Shown piece by piece: positions 9,772 through 47,844 of a stretch of DNA of 64,000 bases. Below the pieces are notes generated by a model. The model made no database searches. It was given only the letters and a program-made list of their open reading frames with translations, and was not told the origin of the DNA. The first letter of the stretch is position 1. Every line of letters begins with the position of its first letter. The position numbers were made by a program, and so were the translations under genes. The stretch is from an uncultured Bacteroidales bacterium. Its GTDB lineage: Bacteria > Bacteroidota > Bacteroidia > Bacteroidales > UBA3824. Where the stretch lies: positions 30 through 64,029 of the forward strand of contig CAMOSO010000021.1 of NCBI GenBank assembly GCA_946624925.1, given 5' to 3'.

Positions 9772-11009
9772 AAAAAATCCTAATCATAACAGCAATATTC
9801 GCGCTCGCAACTACGGCGCAGGCACAGGACAAGAAATTTGACAAGGTAATGCAACTCTATGAGTCTGAGAACTATACGGAGTGTATGGAAGCCGTCAAAA
9901 AATACAACGCCGCCAATCCGTCGAAGCCCGACGGCGTGTTCATATTGGCGTTTACATACCACAAGATTTTCCGTCAAGCACCGCAGAAGGAGTACAACCT
10001 CACTTCCGCCGAGAATACGCTCTACACCGCCTTCAACAAGGACAAGGACAAGTCAGTCCGCCTCAAATACAAGGCTGAGGTTGACGAATTGAAGGCAACA
10101 ATCACCGAATTTCAGGACAAATTTTACGCCGCCAACGACAACAAGAAGGCGGGGCAGCACGCGATGATGTTGGCGAAGATTTTCAACGACACCACCGAGA
10201 CCTACAAGCACATCTTTATGCCCGAACTTTTCGCTGCGCCCGTCACCTACGGCAAGACCCTCGCCGCCTACGAAGGCCCCACCAACCAAACCGACGTAAC
10301 TGGCAAGAAGATAGGCGTTTGGATTGAACTCTACCCCAACGGCAACCGCAAATCTCAAATCAACTACGAGGCAGGCAAACCTCGCGGCGACTTTTACAAA
10401 TTTTACGAGCACGGCGGCGTGAGCGCACACCTTTATATGATAGACGACGACCGCGCCTCCGCCATCCTCTACGACGAAAACGGCGACCGCGTGGCGATGG
10501 GTTATTATTATCAACGTCAAAAAGACAGCCTTTGGCAGTACCTCGAAAGCGATTCTATCCTCGTGGCGGAGGAAAATTACGTCCGTGGCAAGAAAAACGG
10601 CCCCGAAATCACCTACTTCCCCTACGGCCTCCCCGCCGAGGAACTCAATTGGAAAGACGGCGTTAAGAACGGCGCGTGGAAGCGTTACCACGACATCGGC
10701 ACGATTTTGTTTGAGGCGACCTACGTAAACGGCAAACTCGAAGGCCGCTACACCAAATACAACAACAAAGGCGAGATAGAACTCGTCGGCAATTACAAAA
10801 ACGATGTCAAGCACGGCGAATGGAAGGAGCTCGACCCCAAGACCAAGAAATACAAGGTTACGAAATACATCAACGGCGAAGTTGAAAACGCGGCGGAGGA
10901 AGACCTCAAAGAATCCAAACAGCTTGAAAAACAGTCAGAAGAGGGCAAATACCTCCCCGACCCTGTCGATTTCCACAATAATCCCGAAGAATTTTTCCAA
11001 AGGCAGTAA
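9768..11009 (+). CDS. MORN/YwqK-type repeat protein, secreted
   Basis: ATG overlaps the upstream stop (ATGA at 9768-9771). Signal peptide MKKILIITAIFALATTAQA. Repeats GKKIGVWIELYPNG, GKKNGPEITYFPYG, DGVKNGAWKRYH, NGKLEGRYTKYN, DVKHGEWKE. Confidence 0.75.
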   Translation: MKKILIITAIFALATTAQAQDKKFDKVMQLYESENYTECMEAVKKYNAANPSKPDGVFILAFTYHKIFRQAPQKEYNLTSAENTLYTAFNKDKDKSVRLKYKAEVDELKATITEFQDKFYAANDNKKAGQHAMMLAKIFNDTTETYKHIFMPELFAAPVTYGKTLAAYEGPTNQTDVTGKKIGVWIELYPNGNRKSQINYEAGKPRGDFYKFYEHGGVSAHLYMIDDDRASAILYDENGDRVAMGYYYQRQKDSLWQYLESDSILVAEENYVRGKKNGPEITYFPYGLPAEELNWKDGVKNGAWKRYHDIGTILFEATYVNGKLEGRYTKYNNKGEIELVGNYKNDVKHGEWKELDPKTKKYKVTKYINGEVENAAEEDLKESKQLEKQSEEGKYLPDPVDFHNNPEEFFQRQ

Positions 11010-26010: not shown

Positions 26011-26976
26011 TTATAATTGAATGTTGTTGAGGATTCCCACAATCTTCTCGTAATCTTCGGGAGATTTGAGGTTGAAAGTGAGTTTGTAAATGCCTTTGCT
26101 GTCGAGTTTTAGATCGACCGGCACATTGAATTTCTTTGTGAAAGACTTTTTGAGTTGCTTCTGTTCGTCGGAGAGTTTTGGGCGGGCTGCCTTCACCATC
26201 AGTTTCTTGTCGTCTTGGTTATCTTCGGCGGCGGGTTCGCCGTTCTCCTCGTCCTGAGCCTTCTGTTCGAGTTCAAAGATGTATCCGTCGGGGTCTTTCA
26301 CCAACATCTCCACCTGACGCGCCGACAGTCCGTAGTTCAAGACCTTTTGGAAGAGGTCGAGCTGGAGGTCGGGGTCGTCAAGGCTGATGAGAGGACGTAT
26401 CTGACCCTCAGTGATTACCTTGTTGCGGAGAGCCGCCTGCATTTGGTCGGGCAGACGGAGAAGGCGGAGTGAATTTGCGATGGTGCTGCGCCCCTTGCCG
26501 AGCCTCGTGCTGAGTTCCTCCTGCGTGAGGTGGCACTCCTCGATAAGGCGGTTGTAGGTGATGGCAACTTCAATAGAATTGAGGTCTTCGCGCTGAATAT
26601 TCTCCACGAGAGCCATCTGCAACGCCACACTGTCGTCAGCCTCGGTGATGTACGCTGGCACTTCCGAAAGCCCCGCAATCTTGGACGCACGGTAACGCCG
26701 CTCGCCCGAAATGATTTCGTACTTGTCGTCCTTCTTTCTCAGAGTGAGCGGCTGAATGATTCCCAACGTCTTGATAGACTCGGCAAGTTCGTTGATGGCG
26801 TTTTCGTCAAAATCCGTGCGGGGCTGCGTCGGATTTGGCACGATGAGGTCGAGGGCAATCAGAGCAATGCTGCCCGTATTGACCACTTCCTCGGGTTGGT
26901 TGTTCTCAAAAGTCTTGTTGTCCTGAATAAGGAAGTCCAAACCCCTGTTGAGACCGCCTATCTTTGCTTTTGCCAT
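26011..26976 (-). CDS. parB: Chromosome partitioning protein ParB
   Basis: GLNRGLDFLI, PNPTQPRTDFDE, GIIQPLTLRK, IISGERRYRASKIAG, HTH segment LTQEELSTRLGKGRSTIANSLRLLRLP. Confidence 0.93.
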   Translation of the reverse strand: MAKAKIGGLNRGLDFLIQDNKTFENNQPEEVVNTGSIALIALDLIVPNPTQPRTDFDENAINELAESIKTLGIIQPLTLRKKDDKYEIISGERRYRASKIAGLSEVPAYITEADDSVALQMALVENIQREDLNSIEVAITYNRLIEECHLTQEELSTRLGKGRSTIANSLRLLRLPDQMQAALRNKVITEGQIRPLISLDDPDLQLDLFQKVLNYGLSARQVEMLVKDPDGYIFELEQKAQDEENGEPAAEDNQDDKKLMVKAARPKLSDEQKQLKKSFTKKFNVPVDLKLDSKGIYKLTFNLKSPEDYEKIVGILNNIQL

Positions 26977-26995
26977 TGGTCTATAAGATTAAAAA

Positions 26996-27098
26996 GTTGA
27001 TAGTTTAATGTTGATAGTTGAAAGTTGAAAGTTGAAAATTGAAAGTTGAAAGATTAAAGATTTCAATTTTCAATTTCTAATTTTCAATTTCTAATTTT
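26996..27098. repeat. AT-rich heptad-repeat palindrome between parA and parB
   Basis: gttgaaa(g/a) tandem heptads on the left arm pair with tttcaattttcaatttc on the right arm (ttgaaaattgaaa / tttcaattttcaa). Confidence 0.7.
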
Positions 27099-27873
27099 TC
27101 TTAGCGAGTGCAGCGTCCTTTTCGAGGATTTCTTTGGCGAGGTTGAGATAATTGACCGCGCCGCTCGATGTGGCGTCGTACTCAATTACAGGCTTGCCGT
27201 AAGACGGAGCCTCTGAGAGACGGATATTCCTCAATATCAATGTCTTGAACACCATATCTTGGAAGTGTTGGCGCACCTGGTCCACCACTTGGTTGGAGAG
27301 GCGGAGGCGGCTGTCGTACATCGTGAGGAGGAATCCTTCGGTTTGGAGGTCGGGATTGAGCCTTGCCTGAATCATCTTGACGGTGTTGAGGAGTTTGCCA
27401 AGACCTTCGAGCGCAAAGTATTCGCACTGCACGGGAATGATGACAGCGTCGGCTGCGGTGAGGGCGTTGACGGTGAGAAGACCCAACGACGGCGAACAGT
27501 CGATGATGATGTAGTCGTACATATCGCGCACCTTGGAGATGAACGATTTGAGCCTGTACTCGCGCGATTCTACGTTAAGGAGTTCAATCTCCGCACCCAC
27601 GAGGTCGATGTGCGATGGAACGATGTCGAGGCCGTCGGTGCCGGTTTTGAGAATGATGTCCTTGGGTTCCACGTCGTCGGTGAGGGCGTCGTAGATGCTC
27701 TTTTCGATGGACTTCAACTCAAATCCAAGGCCGGAAGTACAGTTGGCCTGCGGATCGGCGTCGATGAGCAATATCTTCTTTTCCAATATCGCGAGCGACG
27801 CGCCGAGGTTGATGGATGTTGTAGTCTTGCCAACTCCACCTTTTTGGTTGGCTATTGCAAATACTCTTGACAT
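27091..27873 (-). CDS. parA: Chromosome partitioning ATPase ParA/Soj
   Basis: Deviant Walker A NQKGGVGKTTTSINLG; IIDCSPSLG; 260 aa; upstream of parB. Confidence 0.95.
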   Translation of the reverse strand: MSRVFAIANQKGGVGKTTTSINLGASLAILEKKILLIDADPQANCTSGLGFELKSIEKSIYDALTDDVEPKDIILKTGTDGLDIVPSHIDLVGAEIELLNVESREYRLKSFISKVRDMYDYIIIDCSPSLGLLTVNALTAADAVIIPVQCEYFALEGLGKLLNTVKMIQARLNPDLQTEGFLLTMYDSRLRLSNQVVDQVRQHFQDMVFKTLILRNIRLSEAPSYGKPVIEYDATSSGAVNYLNLAKEILEKDAALAKKN

Positions 27874-29564: not shown

Positions 29565-30893
29565 TTACTTCAACAAATATTTCCACGCTGGGACGACGTT
29601 GATTGTCTTGCCGTCAGCGGTGATTGTGCGCTCGTCATCGTCGGTTATGATGAAAAGATTTTCACAACCGGTGGCGACAGCGGCATCTGTCAGGCCGTGT
29701 ACTTCACGCTCAAAAGTCTGCGGGTTGGATATGTACCACGAAACCTGAATCAGGCTGTCAACGCAATCGCCCTTGCGAACAAGAAAATCGCACTCGGTCT
29801 TGTCCTTGTAGTAACAAACCTTGCCGTCAACACCCTTGGTACGGTAAAGGTGGAGGAATACTGTGTTTTCAAGATTTTTGCCGTAGTCGTCGCTCTGTGG
29901 CATCATCACCGCGCCGCGCAGACCATTGTCAATGCAATAGTACTTGAAAAGAGAATTTTCCTCCTTGACCATCGAATATTCAAATTTTGGCACCTTTATA
30001 AACATAAACACCGCACAGACATAGTTTGCCCATAGGTAAAGTTCATCTTTTGAAATCTTAAGCCCCTGCGACTTTATGTCGTTGAAAATAGAATTGATAG
30101 AAGTAGGCTTGGTGATGTTGTTCATTATGCGCTTTACAAAATAACGGGCGACATTGGTGTTTGTGATGCTGTAATGCTCCGCCAAATCTTTGAGCAACAT
30201 CGTATTAAAATAAGCATTAAGGATTTTCAGCCTTTCGCTTTCAGTGGCAGCCAATGCAACTTCCGGGAAACCGCCCTTGGCATTAAAATCCCTGAACGTA
30301 TTGCGCAAAACTGCCTGTTCACTCTCCAAATAGGTGTCGGTTTTGATACCTTTGAAGCGGCAGTATTCGTTGAACGAAAGCGGAAGTGTTTCGTATTCAA
30401 GCGGATAGCCGCGCAAAGCGGTTGTCAACTCGGTGGAAAGCATCGTGGCATTGCTGCCGCATACATAAATATTTTTGCAATAGTTTTTGTAAACGCGCAA
30501 CACAAAATATTCCCAATCCTTCACCAACTGTATCTCGTCGAAAAACATATAAACGTCCTTCAAAGCTATATCTGGAAACATTTCCAAATACGCCTTCAAA
30601 ATCTCGTCGAGGTTTTCGGTGCATACGCTGCGCAACCTTTCGTCGTCAAAGCCCAACCAAAGGATACGTTTTTTGTCAACGCCTTTTTCTATCAGGCGGT
30701 TGACTGTTATTTCCATCATCGACGACTTGCCGCAACGCCTCACTCCTGGAATCGTTATGATTTTCTTCCTGTCCAACGGCAGAAGTTCGTCCCTGCCGAT
30801 TACGTCAAATGGCATTTCAGCCTGTCTGAGGGCAATAATTGTCTTAAAAACTTCCTTCATATTCATAATATTGAAAATTGTTTTGCACCGCAA
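29565..30893 (-). CDS. AAA-type ATPase with DUF4143-like (PD-(D/E)xK-fold) C-terminal domain
   Basis: Walker A GVRRCGKSS, Walker B YMFFDEIQ, C-terminal ECDFLV...IQVSW. The start may be an internal ATG (30866 or 30860). Confidence 0.8.
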   Translation of the reverse strand: MRCKTIFNIMNMKEVFKTIIALRQAEMPFDVIGRDELLPLDRKKIITIPGVRRCGKSSMMEITVNRLIEKGVDKKRILWLGFDDERLRSVCTENLDEILKAYLEMFPDIALKDVYMFFDEIQLVKDWEYFVLRVYKNYCKNIYVCGSNATMLSTELTTALRGYPLEYETLPLSFNEYCRFKGIKTDTYLESEQAVLRNTFRDFNAKGGFPEVALAATESERLKILNAYFNTMLLKDLAEHYSITNTNVARYFVKRIMNNITKPTSINSIFNDIKSQGLKISKDELYLWANYVCAVFMFIKVPKFEYSMVKEENSLFKYYCIDNGLRGAVMMPQSDDYGKNLENTVFLHLYRTKGVDGKVCYYKDKTECDFLVRKGDCVDSLIQVSWYISNPQTFEREVHGLTDAAVATGCENLFIITDDDERTITADGKTINVVPAWKYLLK

Positions 30894-31006: not shown

Positions 31007-32479
31007 CTACAACATCTGCACCAACCTTCCCGCACAACCTTCGCCGTAACCGAGCCTTTCCTCGTGTACTTCGCCATAAAAAGTTATAAAAACACCGCGA
31101 TACCAGCCGTCGCTCGGGGCTGAACGTGTCCAATACCAACCGCCCGGGTATGAATTGTCAACGAGTTCGAGGTAGCGGTATGGAGCGTCGGGCAGAAATA
31201 CTGCGCCGGCCTGTTCCATACGAGCCCAGTCGTCAACAGTATAGACGTTCATAATTTCTTTCGGGTCGTCGAAATCGAACATTTCAAAGGGACGAAAATC
31301 CAAACCTTCGGGCAACGTAAACTCGTCGGGCAATATCACAAGCCCCTTACATTCGCCCACAATTTGCGCACTGCCAAATTTCTTGTCGGCATCCTTGCGC
31401 CTCTGCAACAGGTACGTCCATTCAGATTTCAACAGAACCGTCCATTCGGGACCAATGGCACAAGTGCCTGCAAGTTCGGCATCATCTATAAACAACGGTG
31501 GATAATCAAACTCATCTTCGGTAGTCTGATACGGCAATCCACCATCTTCGAACCAAGTGCCCACGCCAAAATTATCAATGCAAGTATTGTACAAACTCCA
31601 CGTCGAAAAATTGACGCCCACATCATCCACATTTACAAAACGTCCGTACTGCGAGGATGCAAAAAACCAATTTCCAAAATCGAGTTCATAACAAAGATTG
31701 CCCTTGCTGAAAAACACTTGTTTGTCCTTACCAACTGAAAAAATGCCCCTGATGCAATTGTCAGGCACACCGAAACCGCTTACCTTATAAAAATATTTGC
31801 CTTCCTGGTCGAAAGTTTCATCAAGTTGCAGATTGTCGCTTACAATCGTAGTGCCGGAGGGAATGGCAATGATAGTGCTGCCGGGCAGGTCATATTTGCA
31901 CTGCAACGCCTTGCGGGAAAGTCCGAGAGTTGCGCCGCCGTATTTGAGGTCAAAATCCACAAACACAGTCTTTTGCACAAGATTCACCGACACTCCGCTA
32001 TTGGCGTATGCAAAATCCTCACACGCCCAATATCCGTACCTCTCCAATCCCTGCGCCAACGACGACACAGCCCTCACGTCCATAAAAGGTTTGCCACCAT
32101 TATAAAGTGTGTCGGTGGAGGCGGTATTTTTCAGTGCGGCTGTCAGGCGAGTGTCGGACGTGAGAGCAACGCCAGCCCTTACCTTCAATTCACCCGAAAA
32201 AATGGCAGAGCCATTGCCCGCGCATCCGTCGCTCAATAGCACAGCGGGTTCTACGAGGATAGAATAATTGGTAACAACCACAGCGTCGCCCTCTGCAAAA
32301 GTCTTTTTCAAATCAACGCCATCCGCCTCATCGTTGCCCGGCACGATAGTCGCAGTCAATGAAAACGGTATAACATAATATTCAGGACAATCCACCGCGT
32401 CGGGGTCGTTGTCGTCGTAGCCGCAGGATGGCGAGAGGAGCGTCAACAACAAAATTAATATGTTGAAATATTTTTTCAT
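31007..32479 (-). CDS. Surface lipoprotein with FISUMP/DUF1566-like (C-type-lectin-fold) C-terminal domain
   Basis: Lipobox LLTLLSPSCG from the ATG at 32479; GIFSVGKDKQVFFSKGNLCY, PEWTVLLKSEWTYLL and AGAVFLPDAPYRY...GGWYWTRS resemble the FSxGNLQY / EW..L / LPAAGYR / YWSS motifs of that family. Confidence 0.55.
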   Translation of the reverse strand: MKKYFNILILLLTLLSPSCGYDDNDPDAVDCPEYYVIPFSLTATIVPGNDEADGVDLKKTFAEGDAVVVTNYSILVEPAVLLSDGCAGNGSAIFSGELKVRAGVALTSDTRLTAALKNTASTDTLYNGGKPFMDVRAVSSLAQGLERYGYWACEDFAYANSGVSVNLVQKTVFVDFDLKYGGATLGLSRKALQCKYDLPGSTIIAIPSGTTIVSDNLQLDETFDQEGKYFYKVSGFGVPDNCIRGIFSVGKDKQVFFSKGNLCYELDFGNWFFASSQYGRFVNVDDVGVNFSTWSLYNTCIDNFGVGTWFEDGGLPYQTTEDEFDYPPLFIDDAELAGTCAIGPEWTVLLKSEWTYLLQRRKDADKKFGSAQIVGECKGLVILPDEFTLPEGLDFRPFEMFDFDDPKEIMNVYTVDDWARMEQAGAVFLPDAPYRYLELVDNSYPGGWYWTRSAPSDGWYRGVFITFYGEVHEERLGYGEGCAGRLVQML

Positions 32480-32492
32480 AATCGGTGCTGTT

Positions 32493-33575
32493 TTAGTTTT
32501 CAATGTTGAGTTTGCTCAGGTCGTCGGTGTGGTAGATTACGAGTTGAGGCTCATCAGATTCATAATTTTCACGACGGGCAGCATATACGTCATATTCGCC
32601 GTTTGGGTCGGGCGACACATAGATTGGTATCAGACTACAACCGTTGTAATTATCGGTGGAGATTTTCGATATTACATTGCCATTGATGTCGTCAACAATA
32701 TAAACCTCACCATAACTGCCATCTTTTGCAATTTCTTGAATGACATCTCCCGTTACAATCAACTTGCCGTCGTGGACAGTGAGATTATAAATTTCGGAAT
32801 TTTCTATCTCGGCGGAGTAGATTATGCGTCCGTCGGTGGACATCTTCAAGACCGACCATTTCTCTATAAAATCAAACTCTGTATCGGGATTCGCAATGCC
32901 GCCCCTAACTATTACATAAAGATAGCCGTCGATATATCGGACAGTGTCAATCATACCTTCCAACTCGCCCTTGCCCAACTCATTGCCGTCGGCGTCATAG
33001 ATGCCAAAAAGGTTGTCGTTGAACGCAAAACATTTGTCATCGAAAGGCTGCACACGCACCCAATCGCTGTTTTTAATGACATACGGGAAATTGCTGCCAA
33101 GAGTGTGCAATACCATTTCGTTGTTCTCATTCCAATTTACATAACCTATATCGCCATTGTCGAGCAATAGAGGCTCATTGACACCGACCTCGTCATCGTC
33201 AACAATCTCACTATTGACTGTTACATTGCCGAGCCTGTCGAACTTGACAACCGTTTCCCGACATTTCGTTTCCCGATATGCCACAAGACATTCGCCCGAC
33301 GTATTGACTTGAAAATAACTGCACTCCATAACGGCTGCCAATTCAGAATACGCCACAATGCCATCGCGCATCACTTTTGCAATCTTGACACCATCGCTTT
33401 CTGATACGGGCAAAACCACAGTACCATCTGACATCGGTTTTACTAACGAAATGCTGCGGATATGCAGACCCGGCACTCTGACGGGCATACGGTGCGGGTC
33501 GGAATACGTGGTATCGTCGCAGCCAATAAGCGACATCACCAAAACAATTGTCAATATATGTATGAATGTTTTCAT
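32493..33575 (-). CDS. Lipoprotein with repeated beta-strand (propeller-like) modules
   Basis: Lipobox LVMSLIGCDD from the ATG at 33575; about 8-10 recurring D/N-G-x-hydrophobic blade-like segments (DGTVVLP, DGIVAYS, NGDIGYVNW, DGNELGKG, DGRIIYSAE, DGKLIVTGD, DGSYGEVYIV). Confidence 0.5.
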   Translation of the reverse strand: MKTFIHILTIVLVMSLIGCDDTTYSDPHRMPVRVPGLHIRSISLVKPMSDGTVVLPVSESDGVKIAKVMRDGIVAYSELAAVMECSYFQVNTSGECLVAYRETKCRETVVKFDRLGNVTVNSEIVDDDEVGVNEPLLLDNGDIGYVNWNENNEMVLHTLGSNFPYVIKNSDWVRVQPFDDKCFAFNDNLFGIYDADGNELGKGELEGMIDTVRYIDGYLYVIVRGGIANPDTEFDFIEKWSVLKMSTDGRIIYSAEIENSEIYNLTVHDGKLIVTGDVIQEIAKDGSYGEVYIVDDINGNVISKISTDNYNGCSLIPIYVSPDPNGEYDVYAARRENYESDEPQLVIYHTDDLSKLNIEN

Positions 33576-33585
33576 CGTATTGTTT

Positions 33586-34632
33586 TTAGTAACCATAATG
33601 GTGTTTAGCGATTGTGGTGTATTGGAGGTTGACCTCTACGCCGATTTTTGCGTTGTACTCCAACATACTGAACACGTCGCGGATGTAAAGATTCTTGTAC
33701 ATAAGCGTCAAGTCGTCAAATTTTTTGTCGGGGTCGTTGTAAGGCTTGATGTCATACGACACTCCAAAATCAACGAAAAAAGTAATCCGACGATGGTTGT
33801 AATTGAGCCTTGCGCCGCCGAGTACGGAATAGTTGGTGCGGTTTTTATAATCGGTGTCGTCCTTCTTGGCGGGGACTTCGGTGTAGGTGCCGATGGCGTC
33901 GGTGTAGGCGTTGGATTTGGTGGCAATTATGTATTTCAATTGTGCGCCGCCGTAGATAGACGGCACAAAATCGTTGCCCCACGGATACATCATCATTTCT
34001 GCAATCACCGGCAATTCAAAGACCTTGCAAGATTCGTTGTAGCGGAAAGTGGCAATTTCGGAACGTATCATTTTGCGCTCAATCTGATATTTGGCAAACG
34101 ACGGCGCAACACTTATCGAGAGCATCCTCTTAGGGCTGTACTCAAAACCAATCTGCGCCGAATAGCCATTGATGTCGTATTCGGGACTGCCAACAGTATC
34201 AACAATCTGGCGCATAGAATGAAGCACCGGGCGCACCATACGCACACCTGCCGCCATCCAAACCGAAAATTTTGGCATTGTATAATAATTGCCCAATGTA
34301 GCCCTGAATGGCTGAGGGTCGTCGGGCTTTATTTCATAAAACGGATATTTCTCAAAAAACAGCCGCGCCGCGCTGTCAGCCTCGCGACGGTAGCCAAAAT
34401 CCTTGTAGGCAGCAACGGTGAATTTGAGCCGATGGAGGTTTTCATCCTTGGTGAGAATGTGGCTGTCGCCGATTTGCTGCGAAAGCTGCAACACCTGGTC
34501 GTACTTGCCGGCGGAATACAAATCTTCAAGCCTTTGCAACTGGCTTAGCGTGTCGCCCTGCGCGTGGGCGGTCTGCACTGCCGAGATTGCAATAGTCATC
34601 ATCAAAAATATGTGTAAAAATCCTTTCATCAT
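33586..34632 (-). CDS. Secreted protein: N-terminal helical (TPR-like) region plus predicted outer-membrane beta-barrel
   Basis: Signal peptide MKGFLHIFLMMTIAISAVQTAHA; helical region LEDLYSAGKYDQVLQLSQQI; then alternating beta pattern ending in an aromatic residue. Confidence 0.45.
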   Translation of the reverse strand: MMKGFLHIFLMMTIAISAVQTAHAQGDTLSQLQRLEDLYSAGKYDQVLQLSQQIGDSHILTKDENLHRLKFTVAAYKDFGYRREADSAARLFFEKYPFYEIKPDDPQPFRATLGNYYTMPKFSVWMAAGVRMVRPVLHSMRQIVDTVGSPEYDINGYSAQIGFEYSPKRMLSISVAPSFAKYQIERKMIRSEIATFRYNESCKVFELPVIAEMMMYPWGNDFVPSIYGGAQLKYIIATKSNAYTDAIGTYTEVPAKKDDTDYKNRTNYSVLGGARLNYNHRRITFFVDFGVSYDIKPYNDPDKKFDDLTLMYKNLYIRDVFSMLEYNAKIGVEVNLQYTTIAKHHYGY

Positions 34633-34643
34633 CAAACAAAAAA

Positions 34644-35834
34644 CTATTTTATACAATATCCGGCAACCAAAACATCATCGAGCTGAGCCTGCGAGCCGCG
34701 CCATTTTTCAAAATGCTCATTGAGGAGCGCGTACTGCTCGGCGGCGGATTTGGTCTTGGTGTTGATATCTACTATTAGCTGGCGGAAACGGAAGTTTGTT
34801 AACTTCTGGTGGTCGTCACTAAACTGATCGGCGTATCCGTCGGAATACATATACACGTAATCGCCGCTCTGAATATCGACATCGCGATCCTCAAACGGCC
34901 TGAGCTTCGGATATATCGCAATAGGATTCTTTACCGGCTTGTATTCTGTGAGCGTAGTGCCGCGCACGTGCAACAATCCATTGTTGGCACCCGAAAACTG
35001 CATTTTGGTATTGGCGAGGTCGAGCACACACAACGCCATATCCATACCGTCGCTCTGCGTATCCACACTGAGGCTCTGTTGGAGAGTGGCGATTACCTTG
35101 CGGCGCATCTCTTCGAGGATTTGCGAGGGGCGAGTGCCGGGCGTAAATTCAACGCAAATTTCGTTGAGGAAAGCAACGCCAAGCATACTCATAAACGCGC
35201 CCGGCACGCCGTGTCCGGTGCAGTCTGCCACCGTGAAAATCACAATGTCGCCAATGCGCTTCATCCAATAAAAATCACCCGAAACTATATTCCTCGGCCT
35301 CCAAAACAGAAACACGTCGGCAAACGACTCTTTGAGGATGTATTCTGCCGGAAGGACGGCGTCCTGGATTAATTTTGCATATTCAATGCTCGATGTCACG
35401 GCGTGGTGCTGCGATTCGATTTCATTTTTGAGGGCTTGGATGTGCTGACGCTCCTTTTCGATGGCTACGCTTATGTCCCACAACACTTGGTTGCGCTCGG
35501 AGAGTTCCTGTTGCTGACCTTCGAGAGATTTCTGTTCGGCGGCGATTTTCTCCAAATCGACGGCTTGTGCTATTGATTCTGATTTTGATGGCGGCTGCGC
35601 GTCCTTGTTTCGGCGGGTCTCGTCGTCGAGGAGAGTGTTGAGTCGGCGGATTTCACTCTCACAATCGCGGATTTTGGAGGTGTATAGACCGTCCATGCGC
35701 CGCGCAGTCTTGGAGACAAACCGCCGCCGTGTCAATATCACGACTATTGCGACCACGATTGCCACCGCCGTCGTTACCATCAATATTATTTCGAGTATCG
35801 TAAAATTCATTATAGTCAGCATTAATAAAAACAT
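34644..35834 (-). CDS. Membrane-anchored PP2C/SpoIIE-family serine/threonine phosphatase with coiled coil
   Basis: N-terminal TM helix ILEIILMVTTAVAIVVAIVVIL followed by RRRF (C-terminus in the cytoplasm); coiled coil; SGDFYW...FTVADCTGHGVPGAFMSMLG, DGMDMALCV and MYSDGYADQF are SpoIIE/PP2C motifs. Confidence 0.8.
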   Translation of the reverse strand: MFLLMLTIMNFTILEIILMVTTAVAIVVAIVVILTRRRFVSKTARRMDGLYTSKIRDCESEIRRLNTLLDDETRRNKDAQPPSKSESIAQAVDLEKIAAEQKSLEGQQQELSERNQVLWDISVAIEKERQHIQALKNEIESQHHAVTSSIEYAKLIQDAVLPAEYILKESFADVFLFWRPRNIVSGDFYWMKRIGDIVIFTVADCTGHGVPGAFMSMLGVAFLNEICVEFTPGTRPSQILEEMRRKVIATLQQSLSVDTQSDGMDMALCVLDLANTKMQFSGANNGLLHVRGTTLTEYKPVKNPIAIYPKLRPFEDRDVDIQSGDYVYMYSDGYADQFSDDHQKLTNFRFRQLIVDINTKTKSAAEQYALLNEHFEKWRGSQAQLDDVLVAGYCIK

Positions 35835-38800: not shown

Positions 38801-39079
38801 GTGGGCAAGGCTTTCGAGGGGGTTGCGCTGCGGCTTGAAGTCGCAGAAAACCCAACTATTGTATTCCGCCATAGAAAAACCAGCGCGGATATACGGAATC
38901 ACGCCGGCATACACAATTGATGATTTGCCGTCGCCCGACGCACCCGTAATGAAAGCCATCTTGTTCTGTTCCAACATTTTGACAATCTGCCGGATGTGCA
39001 AATCTCGCCCTTTGAAGAAGATTGACTCTTCCTCGGTGAAGGGCCGAAGCCCGGGATATGGACAGATGCTGGTTTTCAT
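35834..39079 (-). CDS. nSTAND-type P-loop NTPase with internal TM helix, coiled coil and C-terminal WD40-like beta-propeller
   Basis: CPYPGLRPFTEEESIFFKGR, Walker A GASGDGKSS, Walker B LLIVADQFEEVFT, FTMRSDY. TM HRRKIVIVIVALLVFIAGLLIFSNWAMI (nt ~37352-37425). Glu/Arg-rich coiled coil. About 7 blade-like repeats (HDGRLFKWNP, FSDGGVQMINL, SADKRIALLN, DDNRLRHWE). Confidence 0.8.
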   Translation of the reverse strand: MKTSICPYPGLRPFTEEESIFFKGRDLHIRQIVKMLEQNKMAFITGASGDGKSSIVYAGVIPYIRAGFSMAEYNSWVFCDFKPQRNPLESLAHSLAEQLKVPFDEVLDELECGFSGLINIYKKSGFYASDGDKNRGKNLLIVADQFEEVFTMNENFHNGIPSNEAYTAVNILLETVRLSISEQLPVYVIFTMRSDYISQCTVFRDLPEFIAYSQFFVPQLKRTEILQVIEQPALLAGGSVSSRLSEVLINNLTSGFDQLPVLQHTLNLLWKTADNGKETLDLIHLAKLAGIPKDILSDAEQADFNRWYLQLPDYQKKYFEKPDLNNVLNAHAGTLYESAFDYYMQNADWADKTITPEESKLIVKTAFTSLTKIDDNRQVRNRSTISEITGIINKPNITAATVCAVLNIFRAEENTLLRPFAVQGDLKSQYLGGDSCLDITHEALIRNWKMLSEWNHEEYENLNVYHDYNTQVQRWADSGRKPEFLLASGNYAIFSKWYDKCRPNKYWILKNDDTQRPENEKIRSAANRMALCDEYLQQSREAIIAAEKSHRRKIVIVIVALLVFIAGLLIFSNWAMIEKKKAEKQTEIAKENEEDANYQRDLAAKRLTQVNEEKIKTQDLLDSVKTLLDKTTAAQRESELARRDAEDALDSAESSNRRAERNYLIAEERRREAEEQRRKVIAQMDLTEDANANARRLYYVALCNTLAMKAKNQYEDKSLNLRLAKTACEMSRKGGEESKNADLYDAMVFAMEQNKLISPLKFGDGEQKALSIDSDGTINTFGDDGSSYQYAVSPNGTIRQTGRIADFVSKVPVENAIFAAPSLVVSCGKDRKSFLIDLNRNTRTQLPCDDDYVVAASQSPDRKQCAVAYTYGKVVMMPLDGSATPCEKDFGTMVTGVCHEGENIYVLAHDGRLFKWNPKTDNLTTVLPANGKQHAFCVASIPDKRKLAVCFSDGGVQMINLNDDSKGEWVAGGHAKLEHAVYSPETGILALSSADKRIALLNTNDLQEKPLFIEEHSLGNSKVKSMTFDNKGTLYAITDDNRLRHWETDPNKYASALAAMNLPPLTDTEWDLIVGREFTQE

Positions 39080-39906
39080 TTTTTAAGGGTTTTGTCTAAG
39101 AATACTTTGATGTCGAGGGGGATGCGCCGCTTGTCGTTCACAGAACACTCAATGATGTTTCTCAAAACCGAAAGGTCTTCGATTTTGGCGTGGGCATTGT
39201 TGCCGACCACGAGGAGCGGTGTGCGCGAACTACTGCCGCCGCTGTCCTTCCAAATCTGACGCGCAAACGACACAGCCCAATCGCCCGCATAATTGTAATA
39301 CACAACGCCGATTTTGCTTTCGGCGAGTTGCGAAAGTACAAATGAATTGTAGTCGATGCCGCTCGAAAGGCTAACGCCGAGCCGCTGCACGCTCTGAAAA
39401 TCTTTGAGCATATTGCAGATTTCGAGCGCGGTGTCGTTGTCGAGTTCGTTGTAGAGGAAAAAAATGTCGGTAGGTTCGTTTTGGCGGTTTTCCAATTGCT
39501 TGACATTCATAATGTTGCGAATATCCTCAACGAAAACAATCGGCGACTGACGGTCGGAATACACAGTATTTTCCACGATGTCGCGGCGGATGCTGTTGAT
39601 GTATGAATGATTATCACCAATGAAGCCCGAAGGATTCCATACAAACACCTTGAAGTCGCTGCCGCACAATTCTTTAGCCTCGCGAAATTGGACACCGGCG
39701 GGCGAATCGTAACCATCGCCGCCATCGGAATATATATCCTCGCCGCCAAGTATATGTATGCTGCAATCTGCCGCCCGCATCTTGTCCGAGACCTCAATCC
39801 CGGCGTTATGAAGCACACGCGACAACCGCTTCCTCGTTGCCGCCATGTCCGTGGACACGTCAGCGAGGAACACCTTGAACTTCCTATTGTAAAGGTTGAC
39901 AAACAT
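39076..39906 (-). CDS. Cytoplasmic protein with two tandem TIR/DUF4062-like (flavodoxin-fold) modules
   Basis: 276 aa. Module 1: FKVFLADVSTDMAATRKRLSRVLHNAGIEV...ADCSIHILGG (DUF4062-like). Module 2: DIFFLYNELDNDTALEICNMLKD...IGVVYYNYAGDWAVSFARQIW (TIR_2-like but without the catalytic-type Glu). Its stop overlaps the NTPase start (ATGA). Confidence 0.5.
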   Translation of the reverse strand: MFVNLYNRKFKVFLADVSTDMAATRKRLSRVLHNAGIEVSDKMRAADCSIHILGGEDIYSDGGDGYDSPAGVQFREAKELCGSDFKVFVWNPSGFIGDNHSYINSIRRDIVENTVYSDRQSPIVFVEDIRNIMNVKQLENRQNEPTDIFFLYNELDNDTALEICNMLKDFQSVQRLGVSLSSGIDYNSFVLSQLAESKIGVVYYNYAGDWAVSFARQIWKDSGGSSSRTPLLVVGNNAHAKIEDLSVLRNIIECSVNDKRRIPLDIKVFLDKTLKK

Positions 39907-39953: not shown

Positions 39954-39985
39954 CAAATATAAACCATATTTGAAAACGGCACAAA
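39954..39985 (-). promoter_or_regulatory. Candidate promoter of the 31007-39906 operon
   Basis: On the minus strand: TTTG (39985-39982), 20-nt spacer, TATATTTG (39961-39954), about 48 nt upstream of the ATG at 39906. Confidence 0.35.
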
Positions 39986-40015
39986 TAATTATTCAATTTT
40001 TTTGGAAAAATATTG

Positions 40016-40098
40016 TAGGGACGCGGCGCGCCACGTCCCTACGTTGGAAATAATTAAACCAATTTACGTCCCTACGTTGGAAATAATTAAACCAATTT
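40016..40098. repeat. GC-cored hairpin plus perfect 33-bp tandem direct repeat x2 in the divergent promoter region
   Basis: gtagggacg-cggcgcgcca-cgtccctac hairpin; acgtccctacgttggaaataattaaaccaattt at 40033-40065 and again at 40066-40098. Confidence 0.85.
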
Positions 40099-40129
40099 TT
40101 GTTTTTATCGTCAAAAAATTGTAATTTTG
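40098..40129 (+). promoter_or_regulatory. Candidate promoter for the DUF3737-like gene
   Basis: TTTG 40098-40101, 20-nt spacer, TAATTTTG 40122-40129, 27 nt before the ATG at 40157. Confidence 0.35.
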
Positions 40130-40156
40130 CACACGATAAAAATCAGACAAAAAAGA

Positions 40157-41005
40157 ATGAGAATAATCGAAAATCAAGAGTTTGAGGGCGAGCGTCCTCT
40201 CTATCACACAGCCGACCTTTTGCTGCGCGATGTAACGATACACGCAGGCGAATCGGCACTTAAAGAAACCCGCAACATCACCGCCGAGCACTGCACATTC
40301 GAAGGCAAATATCCATTCTGGATTACCGACGGCTTCAAAGTCCGCAACTGCAAATTCACCGAAGGCGCGAGGGCTGCGCTTTGGTACTCCAACGATTTGG
40401 AGATGACCGACACCATCATCGAAGCCCCCAAGATGTTCCGCGACAGTAAACGCCTCAACCTCAAAAACGTGAAAATTCCCGAGGCGCAGGAGACATTTTG
40501 GCACTGCGACGACGTAACGCTCGACCACGTGGAAGTCGATAACGCGCCGTACATCTTCATGCACTGCAACAACGTGAAAATCAGCAACTACACCCAAAAC
40601 GGCAATTACTCGTTTCAATATTGCAAAAACATCGAAATCCGCAATTCAAAAATCTATTCCAAGGACGCATTTTGGAACAGTGAAAACGTCACGGTGTATG
40701 ACTCTGAAATCATCGGCGAATATCTCGCTTGGCACAGCAAAAATGTCCGCCTTGTCAATTGCTTGATTGGTGAGACACAGCCACTTTGCTACTGCGAAAA
40801 CCTCATTTTGGAGAATTGCCGACTGCGCGACGATGCAGATTTGGCTTTTGAATATTCGGACGTCAACGCCACAATCAACGGCCACGTCGTCAGCATCAAA
40901 AACCCGCGCTCCGGCAGCATCAAGGTAGATTCCGTCGGCGAAATCATCCTCGACGACAATATCAAACCGCCAGCCGACTGCAAGATAACGACTACAAACG
41001 CCTGA
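40157..41005 (+). CDS. DUF3737-like right-handed beta-helix protein
   Basis: MRIIENQEFEGERPLYHTADLLLRDV; repeating ~22-aa N-x-x-I/V turns (AEHCTF, VRNCKF, LKNVKI, LDHVEV, KISNY, IRNSKI, VYDSEI, LVNCLI, LENCRL). Confidence 0.65.
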   Translation: MRIIENQEFEGERPLYHTADLLLRDVTIHAGESALKETRNITAEHCTFEGKYPFWITDGFKVRNCKFTEGARAALWYSNDLEMTDTIIEAPKMFRDSKRLNLKNVKIPEAQETFWHCDDVTLDHVEVDNAPYIFMHCNNVKISNYTQNGNYSFQYCKNIEIRNSKIYSKDAFWNSENVTVYDSEIIGEYLAWHSKNVRLVNCLIGETQPLCYCENLILENCRLRDDADLAFEYSDVNATINGHVVSIKNPRSGSIKVDSVGEIILDDNIKPPADCKITTTNA

Positions 41006-46360: not shown

Positions 46361-46425
46361 TTGGAAGTTTCAATTATAATATGTATCTTTACGCCGTAGA
46401 AAAACAACTTAAACAAAACACGAAA

Positions 46426-47844
46426 ATGATAGGCAGAGAATACGAAACAGGTTTGCTGAAACAATACATAAACTCCTCAAAATCAGAGTTTATTGCGATA
46501 TTCGGACGACGGAGGGTTGGTAAGACATATCTTATCGACCAACTGTTTAGGAAAGATTATGCGTTTTCGTTTACGGGTGTTATCGACGGCAAAAAAGAAG
46601 CACAATTTGACGCACTGAAAGATGCGTTTGACTTTTACAAATGTAAAATCCGAAAAATGCCGCAAACTTGGGCTGAGGCTTTCACGGCAATCAGGAAATT
46701 CTTGCAGCCCAAAATCGACAGCGGCAAAACGTGCATTATGTTTATCGACGAACTTCCCTGCCTCGATTACAAAGGCTCAATGTTGATAGAAACGTTGGGA
46801 AATTTTTGGAACAGTTGGGCTTCCAAATACGACAACTTCAAATTAATAGTCTGTGGTTCAGCAACTTCGTGGATGATTAGAAACATCATTGATTCCAAAG
46901 GCGGACTTCACAACCGAATCACTCACGAAATACATCTGCATCCGTTTAGCCTTGGAGAAACAAAAAAATACCTTATGTCCAATAATGTAATGTGGGACGA
47001 TTTGTCGTACTTGCAGTCATATATGATTTTGGGCGGCATACCGTATTATCTGGGACTTTTGAACGAAAAATACAGCCTTGCGCAAAACATTGATTTACTG
47101 TTTTTTAGGCAGGATGGAGAACTGCGCCGAGAGTTTACAAGATTGTTTAAGACATTGTTTTCGACACCCGAACCATACGTTGAAATCATAAAAATACTTG
47201 CAAAAAGTCCTTCGGGGTTGACACGCGACGAGATTTCCAAAAAACTTGGAAAACGCGACAACGGTCATCTTTCCGAAAAATTAGACGACCTGATTTATTC
47301 GGACTTTCTGAGGTTCAACAACGTAAAAGTCAACAAGATAAGTGCGAAAAACGGCATTTACCAACTGATGGATTTCTACACGGCGTTTTATCTGAAATTT
47401 GCCAACAAAAACACCGTTGACGAACATTATTGGGAAAACCGCCTGATGAGCAACGAACTCAACGCCTGGTTTGGGTTAACATTCGAGAAAGTGGCAATGG
47501 CACATATTCCACAGATTAAGAGGAAGTTGCACATCGACTATATGGGCTGCGAATATTATTCGTGCCGATTGAGCAACGCGCAAATCGACCTCATATTGGA
47601 ACGCCCCGACAACGTTATCAACATTTGCGAAATCAAATATTCCATCGCCAAGTACCTGATTTCCAAGGATGAATACGAGAAAGTGCTTCACCGCGTAGAT
47701 GCCTTCCAAAAGGAAACTAAGTCAGCCAACTTTACAGTGAAGCCAATTTTCATCACTACCAAAGGCCTCGCCGACGGAGTGTACTCAAAATTAATAAGTT
47801 TTGATGTTACTTTGGAGGATTTGTTTGAAATAATCTCTAATTAA
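46426..47844 (+). CDS. ATPase (archaeal-type AAA, DUF234-like) with C-terminal PD-(D/E)xK-like module
   Basis: MIGREYETGLL, Walker A GRRRVGKT, Walker B MFIDELP, C-terminal IDLILERPDNVINICEIKYS (D...E-x-K). ATG at 46426 preferred over the track start. Confidence 0.75.
   Translation: MIGREYETGLLKQYINSSKSEFIAIFGRRRVGKTYLIDQLFRKDYAFSFTGVIDGKKEAQFDALKDAFDFYKCKIRKMPQTWAEAFTAIRKFLQPKIDSGKTCIMFIDELPCLDYKGSMLIETLGNFWNSWASKYDNFKLIVCGSATSWMIRNIIDSKGGLHNRITHEIHLHPFSLGETKKYLMSNNVMWDDLSYLQSYMILGGIPYYLGLLNEKYSLAQNIDLLFFRQDGELRREFTRLFKTLFSTPEPYVEIIKILAKSPSGLTRDEISKKLGKRDNGHLSEKLDDLIYSDFLRFNNVKVNKISAKNGIYQLMDFYTAFYLKFANKNTVDEHYWENRLMSNELNAWFGLTFEKVAMAHIPQIKRKLHIDYMGCEYYSCRLSNAQIDLILERPDNVINICEIKYSIAKYLISKDEYEKVLHRVDAFQKETKSANFTVKPIFITTKGLADGVYSKLISFDVTLEDLFEIISN

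Follow-up and report, generated by a model that had tools for sequence, protein, structure and literature searches.

How does a STAND NTPase signal when the TIR-type domains expected at its N-terminus are encoded by a gene of their own, and what can such domains do once their catalytic glutamate has been replaced? These questions are raised by an operon in a 64,000-nucleotide stretch of DNA from an uncultured Bacteroidales bacterium (lineage UBA3824; assembly GCA_946624925.1, contig CAMOSO010000021.1), the whole of which is referred to here as the window. The first gene of this operon, here called gene X, encodes a protein with two domains of the TIR superfamily and precedes the gene of an NTPase of the nSTAND1 family (Table 1). 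An earlier note, made from the sequence alone, had suggested that X is an adaptor or scaffold and no effector that cleaves nicotinamide adenine dinucleotide (NAD+). With a probability of roughly 0.55, we regard X as a separately translated, Glu-less double-TIR signalling module of the membrane-anchored nSTAND1 NTPase, for which it would serve as non-catalytic adaptor or ligand sensor.

Gene X and its two modules

Gene X is real. A search of 5.8 billion proteins retrieved 141 homologues at E<=1e-3, nearly all of them full length (275-300 aa; 45-98% identity), all unnamed or 'hypothetical' and all from Bacteroidales metagenome-assembled genomes (MAGs); a precomputed Pfam domain was recorded for none of the 141. 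The profile search for relatives among 1.84 billion representative proteins returned 148 at E<=0.001, and a separate hidden Markov model for each half showed the order module 1-module 2 to be conserved as a unit. The sequence strings quoted in the earlier note (KFKVFLADVS..RKRLSRVLHNAGIEV..ADCSIHILGG and DIFFLYNELDNDTALEI..IGVVYYNYAGDWAVSFARQIW) are present in gene X, and its description there as the leading gene is correct, the upstream neighbour being a DUF3737 gene on the other strand.

Pfam and NCBIfam scans of the 276-aa protein returned nothing, with no DUF4062 or TIR_2 match even at E<=1, and PADLOC (PADLOC-DB v2) found only a chance-level match to AbiEi for X (E=0.019) and none for the nSTAND1 NTPase. 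The family assignments of X given here derive from relatives, profiles and structure, not from direct Pfam matches. Hydropathy analysis found no transmembrane segment in X. An AlphaFold2 model built with a 42-sequence alignment (A1) has a mean predicted local distance difference test score (pLDDT) of 82.8 and shows residues 11-136 and residues 146-273 folded as two distinct (beta-alpha)5 domains with a low-confidence linker between them; the predicted template modelling score (pTM) of 0.51 leaves uncertain how the domains are oriented relative to each other. In a Foldseek search of the PDB, the whole chain matched tandem receiver domains, TIR domains (PdTIR, AbTir, MAL, RPS4), small GTPases and B12-binding folds with E-values of about 1e-3, which confirms the fold class of X without resolving the individual domains. 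The full-length family profile A1 gave only chance matches to PDB sequences (ankyrin and designed proteins), and a Foldseek search of viral structures (BFVD) was uninformative, as it retrieved generic two-Rossmann-domain proteins with low template modelling (TM) scores.

The two TIR/flavodoxin-like modules proposed earlier are thus recovered as a fold for both halves of the protein by AlphaFold2 and Foldseek. Their designation as tandem modules holds for the fold but not for the sequence, in which hhalign detected no relationship between them: module 1 and module 2 shared six aligned columns when the close-family alignments were compared and reached a probability of 4% with the wide alignments. 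The modelled folds suggest a common origin of the two modules. A recent internal duplication was rejected as their source, since no significant hhalign similarity exists.

The catalytic position in both modules

Sequence comparison supports, by way of its relatives, the membership of module 1 in the wider DUF4062 lineage. In alignment A2, which consists of module 1 of X and 21 diverse relatives (22 sequences), 21 members match PF13271 individually (best 2.4e-9) and nine match TIR_2; X is the sole member that is too divergent, neither the whole protein nor module 1 alone matching PF13271 even at E<=1. Among PDB sequences the A2 profile ranks the DUF4062 domain of KpSwz first (10wc, 11cq, 11cv; E=1.1e-3, profile positions 4-89), followed by bacterial TIR domains with non-significant E-values. 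Through the PF13271 matches of the A2 relatives and the KpSwz profile match, the assignment of module 1 to DUF4062 in the earlier note was borne out. A preprint on NIR (2026) reportedly describes a DUF4062 TIR-like NADase in phage defence. Three further preprints of that year have identified DUF4062 domains as TIR-like NADases in phage defence and in human TEP1 (10.64898/2026.05.01.722283; 10.64898/2026.06.25.731849; 10.64898/2026.09.21.753143). By profile, module 1 belongs to the same lineage as these enzymes (PF13271; NIR/TeTIR; KpSwz/Swarozyc, Eva01, TEP1). It shares with them the Phe of strand A (F13 in X, F11 in Eva01), the Arg of helix A (R25, present in every A2 sequence and placed by the alignment on the Arg in 'LQEER' of KpSwz), the 'SYT'-region Ser (Ser68) and an aromatic residue after the catalytic position, and Ala77 is kept as well. 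Unlike the DUF4062 NADases, X has a Gln at position 73 and a score below the Pfam threshold, carries a second, unrelated TIR-like domain and is encoded by a separate gene; its partner is a membrane-spanning nSTAND1 protein instead of a NACHT protein, and its context is no defence island.

The register of this Gln was established with HMMER, which places S-F-T-E-K-A-F-D-Y-A of KpSwz against S-i-v-e-l-Q-y-e-l-A of the A2 profile. The deposited KpSwz is an E97A variant, in which chain residue 5 corresponds to R18 (offset 13) and chain residue 84, an Ala, to position 97. The alignment pairs this position with the Gln that all A2 sequences share, Gln73 of X (S68-P-A-G-V-Q73-F74). Among 121 close homologues, position 73 is occupied by Gln in 108, His in nine and Glu in three, with one gap; in the aligned remote matches, for which the alignment of this loop is less certain, the column contains 68 Gln, nine Glu, nine His, seven Asp and five Asn. 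The picture of one live and one dead module that the earlier note had implied is not upheld, as module 1 is Glu-less too, and this loss, which the note had not seen, strengthens the view that X is not an NADase.

Nine proteins of 450-520 aa from Cyanobacteria and unclassified bacteria (P0220, P0232, P0241, P0242, P0244, P0250, P0260, P0261 and P0264) combine a Glu-bearing TIR_2 domain, in which S-x-W-C-x-x-E is kept N-terminally, with a Gln-type DUF4062 domain and a divergent alpha/beta domain. Judged by sequence, this live TIR and dead DUF4062 in a single chain look like a separate family. Since the canonical TIR domain retains its Glu and the DUF4062 domain its Gln within the same polypeptide, the Gln is a feature of the clade and no alignment artefact.

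In characterised members of the lineage the Glu is indispensable: E97 of KpSwz and E1008 of TEP1 are required and the Glu-to-Ala mutants are inactive (10.64898/2026.05.01.722283), and in Evangelion Eva01, E87, with Y88 as the next residue, is likewise required for NADase activity or defence (10.64898/2026.06.25.731849). Human NPHP3, in which a DUF4062/TeTIR domain without the catalytic Glu adjoins a STAND ATPase, was inactive in vitro (10.64898/2026.09.21.753143). The likeness of its Glu-less DUF4062-type domain beside a STAND ATPase makes NPHP3 the closest non-catalytic precedent for X (10.64898/2026.09.21.753143). NPHP3 differs in being eukaryotic, cytosolic and of a single such domain fused to NACHT/TPR, whereas the X system is double, split, bacterial and envelope-spanning, the two being compared by description only. 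In module 1 of the close family, E127 is invariant and E112 nearly so, but the predicted secondary structure places E112 in the loop that leads into strand E and E127 within helix E, neither of them at the start of helix C. From this topology there is no sign of a catalytic Glu supplied from another position, which the earlier note had named as an observation that would speak against its reading.

The C-terminal half of X, module 2, represents a new sequence family with a predicted TIR-like fold and the signature DIFFxYN..D...A / KxGVVYY...DWAxxFxxQxWKxxGGxSSxTP. Profile searches of PDB sequences with alignment A3 (26 module 2 sequences) gave only chance matches, again ankyrin and designed proteins, and among the 26 A3 members Pfam detected one TIR_2 (E=0.075) and one TIR_3 (E=0.082), both below threshold, and nothing in X. 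Modelled alone with A3, module 2 reached a pLDDT of 94.6 and a pTM of 0.89, and TIR domains take the first seven ranks when this model is compared with the PDB by Foldseek (E=1.4e-4 to 4.4e-4, TM 0.59-0.66), among them PdTIR (3h16; E=1.4e-4, TM 0.65), RPS4, AbTir (8g83) and BtpA/TcpB. A receiver domain at rank 8, flavodoxin and Ras-like GTPases follow from E=7e-4. The fold check that the earlier note had proposed turned out, for module 2, in favour of TIR over SLOG and deoxyribosyltransferase.

The sequence register of module 2 was provided by an hhalign comparison of A3 with 12 Glu-bearing TIR_2 domains, which are the N-terminal domains of some X relatives and carry S-x-W-C-x-x-E (124 columns, E=1.3e-3, probability 18%). 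In this alignment DIFFxYN falls on D-x-F-I-S-Y, W210 on the Trp of the motif and Phe214 on the catalytic Glu, so that at the level of the register the W-A-V-S-F without NADase Glu recognised in the earlier note could be confirmed, and with it the replacement of the TIR catalytic Glu by Phe214. Phe214 is invariant in the 121 close homologues, as are W210, Q217, W219, K220, G223 and G224; remote relatives have Phe, Lys or Leu at this column. An invariant Glu is found nowhere in module 2 in the close-family alignment. Canonical bacterial TIR_2 domains (PF13676: PdTIR, AbTir, BtpA/TcpB) are the best structural matches of module 2 and have the strand-A motif and the helix-C Trp in register with it; unlike them, module 2 lacks a Pfam match, has Phe214 in place of the Glu and possesses a family-specific WKxxGGxSSxTP loop after helix C. 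The animal TIR adaptors (MyD88, MAL/TIRAP, TLR), of which the MAL and TLR TIR domains appear among the structural matches, scaffold signalling without NAD+ cleavage. They share no detectable sequence relationship with X and would be comparable as functional analogues only.

Other folds for module 2 were considered and rejected. A CheY-like receiver is contradicted by strand 3, which ends in VVYYNY (VVYF in relatives) without an Asp, and by the Foldseek rank of 8. SLOG/LOG and nucleoside 2-deoxyribosyltransferase folds are absent from the top 50 PDB matches of both whole X and module 2; one phage deoxyribosyltransferase was found by Foldseek at BFVD rank 18 (E=8e-3). The GGxSSxTP loop cannot be read as a LOG PGGxGTxxE motif, as it follows helix C instead of a strand and contains no Glu.

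With the Glu lost in both modules, X is most likely not an NADase. On this point the sequence data have to be weighed against the precedent of the lineage, as DUF4062 domains do occur as NADases in the effector position of STAND proteins (10.64898/2026.05.01.722283; 10.64898/2026.09.21.753143). Modelled on TIR-NLRs, Swarozyc and TEP1, X would then be an active effector whose module 1, or that of the Glu73-bearing paralogues, is clustered by the NTPase and thereupon hydrolyses NAD+ or a different N-glycoside, in a defence of the abortive-infection type. Glu does appear at column 73 in three of the 121 close homologues and in nine remote matches, but a Gln replaces it in about 90% of the close homologues, and neither the Glu-to-Ala mutants of KpSwz and TEP1 nor the Glu-less NPHP3 are active (10.64898/2026.05.01.722283; 10.64898/2026.09.21.753143). 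By secondary-structure position, helix C of neither module holds an alternative invariant Glu. Several paralogues per genome, up to six in this case, are usual among immune receptors; on the other hand, neither X nor the NTPase has a meaningful PADLOC match, the neighbours are housekeeping genes, and the sensor part of the NTPase has a predicted periplasmic location, an unusual one for the sensing of phages. Taken together, an active effector appears unlikely.

Linkage to the nSTAND1 NTPase and possible role

That X belongs to the nSTAND1 NTPase is indicated by fused relatives. Four proteins of 1443-1605 aa from other Bacteroidia MAGs (P0177, P0183, P0202 and P0256) contain module 1 and module 2, then nSTAND1, which begins at residues 301-335, and WD40 propellers. 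In these fusions almost nothing separates module 2 from the CPY.GL.PF motif with which the NTPase of the window begins. The C-terminus of P0202 matches LysM, and for P0268, a protein closely homologous to P0177, the NCBI annotation names LysM. The observation of the earlier note that such a module is fused to STAND elsewhere and separate here is matched by these X-nSTAND1-WD40 proteins. The X unit thus behaves as an N-terminal STAND module does, being fused to the same NTPase family in some genomes and adjacent to it where split. Conversely, the nSTAND1 match of the window NTPase begins at position 1 of the model and already at residue 7 of the protein (Walker A GASGDGKSS), and the NTPase consequently has no N-terminal domain of its own.

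At the junction in the window, the TGA of X (39078-39076) and the ATG of the NTPase gene (39079-39077) form an ATGA. This overlap of the X stop codon with the NTPase start codon, pointed out before, is real, and the same 4-nt overlap recurs in 15 of 40 related loci with both genes on the same strand. Any overlap is found in 19 of the 40 (the 15 included), a gap of 1-30 nt in 13 and a gap of more than 30 nt in eight, so that the genes overlap or lie within 30 nt in 32 of 40 loci. Judged by these junctions, translational coupling of X and nSTAND1 appears to be common, not universal. Stoichiometric co-production, for which the earlier note had argued from the overlap, would be an extrapolation, as stoichiometry is beyond what sequence can tell. 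A frameshifted pseudogene of a fused protein was rejected as an explanation of the split, which is kept in 40 loci with varied junctions.

These loci derive from a scan of 185,579 species genomes, which yielded 56 loci in 23 genomes, 52 of them with a complete X gene and all in Bacteroidales MAGs from the guts of sheep, goat, yak, deer and horse. In 40 of the 52 complete loci, nSTAND1 follows immediately downstream on the same strand; in three it is nearby but divergent, in one X lies right after another complete operon, in two the flanking sequence is too short, and in about six no nSTAND1 is present within 8 kb. Two more distant relatives with about 35-40% identity in module 1, P0123 (303 aa) and P0142 (with an extra TIR-like domain), likewise have nSTAND1 directly downstream. 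Across loci, the identity of X to its copy in the window is correlated with that of nSTAND1 to its own (Spearman 0.77, n=35). The fusions, the neighbourhood and this correlated divergence support the interpretation of X as a trans-encoded N-terminal module of the nSTAND1 NTPase.

The number of X copies per genome reaches six (sheep-reticulum MAG RGIG6546); in the window no second copy of X or nSTAND1 was found. With 41-71% identity to the copy in the window, the paralogues indicate an old, diversified gene family and no recent duplication. The X homologues without nSTAND1 within 8 kb (L021, L026, L030, L035, L039 and L060, the last identical to L001) come from genomes in which complete X-nSTAND1-PP2C operons are present as well. 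L026, L033 and L044 share their downstream context, a 296-aa lipoprotein gene followed by YqeY-like and SpoU-like genes.

Such free-standing orphan copies beside complete operons, together with the lost catalytic residues and the tight co-expression, would also suit a titratable inhibitor, that is, a negative regulator or decoy in which the dead TIR-like pair, by capping or occupying the NTPase (or TIR assemblies), would hold the system in the off state until displaced by a signal. In the fused relatives, however, the unit occupies the classical N-terminal effector or adaptor position of STAND proteins, which is normally the output and not an inhibitor, and nothing specific points to inhibition. 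We regard this explanation as quite improbable.

The architectures of other relatives bear on the role of the unit. A TIR-like domain with a conserved W-x-x-E-F precedes module 1 and module 2 in P0142, P0148, P0149, P0170, P0175 and P0176, and it is accompanied by a transmembrane region in P0173 and by an adenylate/guanylate cyclase in P0158. An adaptor or docking module would be expected to show just this combination of a variable effector with a constant, STAND-linked two-module unit, and we infer that X functions as adaptor or scaffold, as the earlier note had suggested. A different emphasis results if ligand binding is the decisive step. As a nucleotide sensor, X would bind NAD+, ADP-ribose or a signal made by TIR domains in its TIR-type pocket without cleaving it, and the occupancy of the pocket would gate the NTPase from the cytoplasm. 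This model overlaps with the adaptor model; its key event is a ligand, serving as a metabolic or second-messenger checkpoint, and not proximity. A polar residue capable of hydrogen bonding is kept at the catalytic position (the Gln is invariant in A2 and present in 108 of the 121 close homologues), and from the alignments such a residue, sometimes replaced by Glu or His, seems to fit ligand binding as well as pure scaffolding; the tolerance of His and Glu at position 73 speaks against the sensor model. Further DUF4062 landmarks are retained, namely the strand-A Phe, the invariant R25 and S68 of the 'SYT' region, and according to predicted secondary structure the invariant residues of the close family lie at the C-terminal ends of the strands, where the fold has its ligand site. 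Pocket geometry and ligand binding are putative. Relatives pair the unit with a Glu-bearing TIR domain that could make such a ligand, but the operon of the window contains no enzyme producing a TIR-type signal. Sensing of this kind is a tentative explanation only.

The topology of the NTPase places the proposed signalling module in an envelope context. Hydropathy analysis of the NTPase revealed one strong hydrophobic segment (residues ~549-579) preceded by H-R-R-K; it is followed by a charged coiled coil some 120 residues long and by the C-terminal beta-propeller. Because of this segment and layout, the C-terminal half is predicted to be periplasmic, and the LysM domains of fused homologues fit this topology; judged by sequence, the beta-propeller is thus probably periplasmic. 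A membrane-spanning bacterial NLR-like protein is unusual.

From these data we infer that X physically binds the NTPase and is enzymatically inactive, and that the signal runs from the envelope through X to the PP2C phosphatase. The beta-propeller of the NTPase would sense a periplasmic cue, probably in concert with the outer-membrane barrel protein and both lipoproteins encoded downstream. The cytoplasmic NTPase would then exchange nucleotide and oligomerise, and the bound X proteins would be brought into proximity and form a TIR-type assembly or a ligand-binding platform. This platform would relay the signal, most likely to the co-encoded membrane-anchored PP2C phosphatase; in the relatives the recipient would be the Glu-bearing TIR or cyclase domain that is fused ahead of the two-module unit. 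A more elaborate and accordingly more speculative version would be a new kind of envelope-spanning, NLR-like receptor of gut Bacteroidales, with the repeat sensor of the STAND NTPase cooperating in the periplasm with the barrel protein and the lipoproteins, and with a detachable pseudo-NADase pair of TIR-like domains as cytoplasmic output, which, binding but not cleaving an NAD-type nucleotide, controls the membrane PP2C. If it applied, TIR/DUF4062 domains would have been reused as ligand-gated adaptors in envelope surveillance and not in abortive infection.

Several observations weigh against the interpretation of X as a non-catalytic module of the NTPase. X scores below every Pfam threshold, its link to DUF4062 is transitive, and the PDB match of the A2 profile is marginal (E~1e-3). 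The predicted fold of module 1 is taken from the whole-chain model, and for module 2 TIR is the best structural match of the model only by a modest margin (E=1.4e-4 against 7e-4 for the receiver, TM ~0.65). Position 73 is variable (Gln 108, His 9, Glu 3), and hence a few paralogues could be active. The conserved Gln and the pocket rim (R25, S68, W90-N91-P92) could also fit ligand binding or other chemistry. In about six loci X can exist without a partner in cis, no nSTAND1 being present within 8 kb, and the PP2C phosphatase is tied to X only by operon membership.

TIR or DUF4062 domains ahead of STAND NTPases with WD40 sensors are already known (TEP1, NWD1, NWD2, plant TNLs and the systems of Kaur et al.), and nSTAND1 itself was defined with variable N-terminal effectors including TIR (Kaur et al. 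2021; PMC8195603). As in TEP1, NWD1 and NWD2, module 1 stands ahead of a STAND NTPase with a WD40-type propeller, and with the TIR-STAND receptors (plant TNLs and the bacterial proteins of Kaur et al. 2021) the system shares the tripartite order of TIR-type module, STAND NTPase and C-terminal repeat sensor. Unlike these receptors, X is a separate gene product, double and Glu-less in both halves, the transmembrane helix of the NTPase puts the sensor outside the cytoplasm, and the operon adds a PP2C, an outer-membrane barrel protein and lipoproteins. Our literature search found no paper describing an X-type arrangement. New are a conserved DUF4062 clade of the Gln type, the obligatory presence beside it of another TIR-like domain that lacks annotation, the two-module unit as a separate and often translationally coupled gene, and an nSTAND1 partner that spans the membrane and shares its operon with PP2C and envelope proteins.

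The X locus represents a natural, conserved branch of DUF4062 that has exchanged the catalytic Glu for another residue, in most cases Gln. X may serve as a tractable bacterial model for the role (scaffold, sensor or regulator) of Glu-less TIR/DUF4062 domains in STAND proteins such as NPHP3, and the locus points to inner-membrane-spanning STAND NTPases with a periplasmic sensor, outside the usual cytosolic NLR-like picture. Moreover, the two modules define two unannotated domain families of about 150 clusters at 50% identity that are missed by current Pfam, NCBIfam and PADLOC models.

The operon and its surroundings

Table 1. Coordinates of gene X, its modules and the neighbouring features in the window, with the basis of each assignment.
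Feature	Coordinates	Strand	Basis and remarks
Gene X, 276-aa soluble protein, first operon gene	39076..39906	-	ORF (open reading frame); two TIR-superfamily domains
Module 1 of X, residues 8-140, divergent DUF4062-type TIR-like domain	39487..39885	-	PF13271 matches of relatives, KpSwz profile match
Gln73 codon, DUF4062 catalytic-Glu position (KpSwz E97, 'E-Y' motif; here Q-F)	39688..39690	-	HMMER alignment
Module 2 of X, residues 141-276, new sequence family, TIR-like fold	39079..39486	-	AlphaFold2, Foldseek, hhalign
Phe214 codon, TIR catalytic-Glu column (W210-x3-F214 vs S-x-W-C-x-x-E)	39265..39267	-	hhalign register
ATGA stop/start overlap of X and nSTAND1 gene	39076..39079	-	Sequence; recurs in related loci
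nSTAND1 NTPase, 1081 aa	35834..39079	-	PF20703 at 1.5e-67, residues 7-302; beta-propeller families
PP2C/SpoIIE phosphatase, 396 aa, membrane-anchored	34644..35834	-	PF07228 at 2.3e-18; N-terminal transmembrane segment
Outer-membrane beta-barrel protein, 356 aa, signal peptide	33586..34656	-	PF13568; signal-like N-terminus; in many related operons
Predicted lipoprotein, 367 aa, ..SLIGC lipobox	32493..33596	-	No Pfam match; weakly conserved in related operons
Predicted lipoprotein, 498 aa, ..SPSCG lipobox	31007..32503	-	No Pfam match; conserved in closest operons; last overlapping gene
Possible Bacteroides-type promoter: TTTG (39985-39982), 20 nt, TATATTTG (39961-39954)	39954..39985	-	Read by eye
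DUF3737 gene	40127-41005	opposite to X	PF12541 at 7e-125

Between 39906 and 31007, each of the six genes overlaps or adjoins the next, with successive overlaps of 4, 1, 13, 11 and 11 nt. The PP2C gene, whose start overlaps the nSTAND1 stop by 1 nt, is kept in related operons, and the N-terminal anchor of its product is followed by RRR. Related loci show the orders X-nSTAND1-PP2C, X-nSTAND1-OMP-(unknown)-PP2C (OMP, outer-membrane protein) or the full six-gene order. Both lipoproteins (31007-33596) are conserved only in the closest operons, with 27-47% identity.

The neighbours of the operon are housekeeping genes (an aminotransferase, ParA/ParB and others) and form no defence island. The genes for ParA (AAA_31/CbiA) and ParB lie at 26011-27873 on the minus strand, about 3 kb beyond the operon, and suggest that the window is chromosomal and close to a partition locus. 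ATPase genes of the AAA_14/DUF4143 or ATPase_2 (PF01637) type recur beside X or the X-nSTAND1 operons in several genomes. In the window they are located at 29565-30893 (-) and 46381-47844 (+), and elsewhere at 10896-12335 in L001, at 8481-9779 and 15525-17015 in L004 and at 6365-7825 in L044, where the gene separates X from a divergent nSTAND1-PP2C pair. These recurrent neighbours may reflect coincidence, such genes being abundant in Bacteroidales, or local rearrangement.

The candidate promoter lies about 48 nt upstream of the X ATG and fits TTTG/TAnnTTTG, the Bacteroides consensus. The spacer is AT-rich, which makes a chance match plausible and the promoter only a lead. Further upstream, the intergenic region contains a palindrome with a perfect stem of 14 bp (40015-40042, GTAGGGACGCGGCG/CGCCACGTCCCTAC), which is followed by a minus-strand T-run, and a perfect 33-nt tandem duplication (40033-40065 and 40066-40098) that starts within the right arm of the palindrome. 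Together, the palindrome and the duplication (40015-40098) could constitute a terminator or insulator, or else a repeat element.

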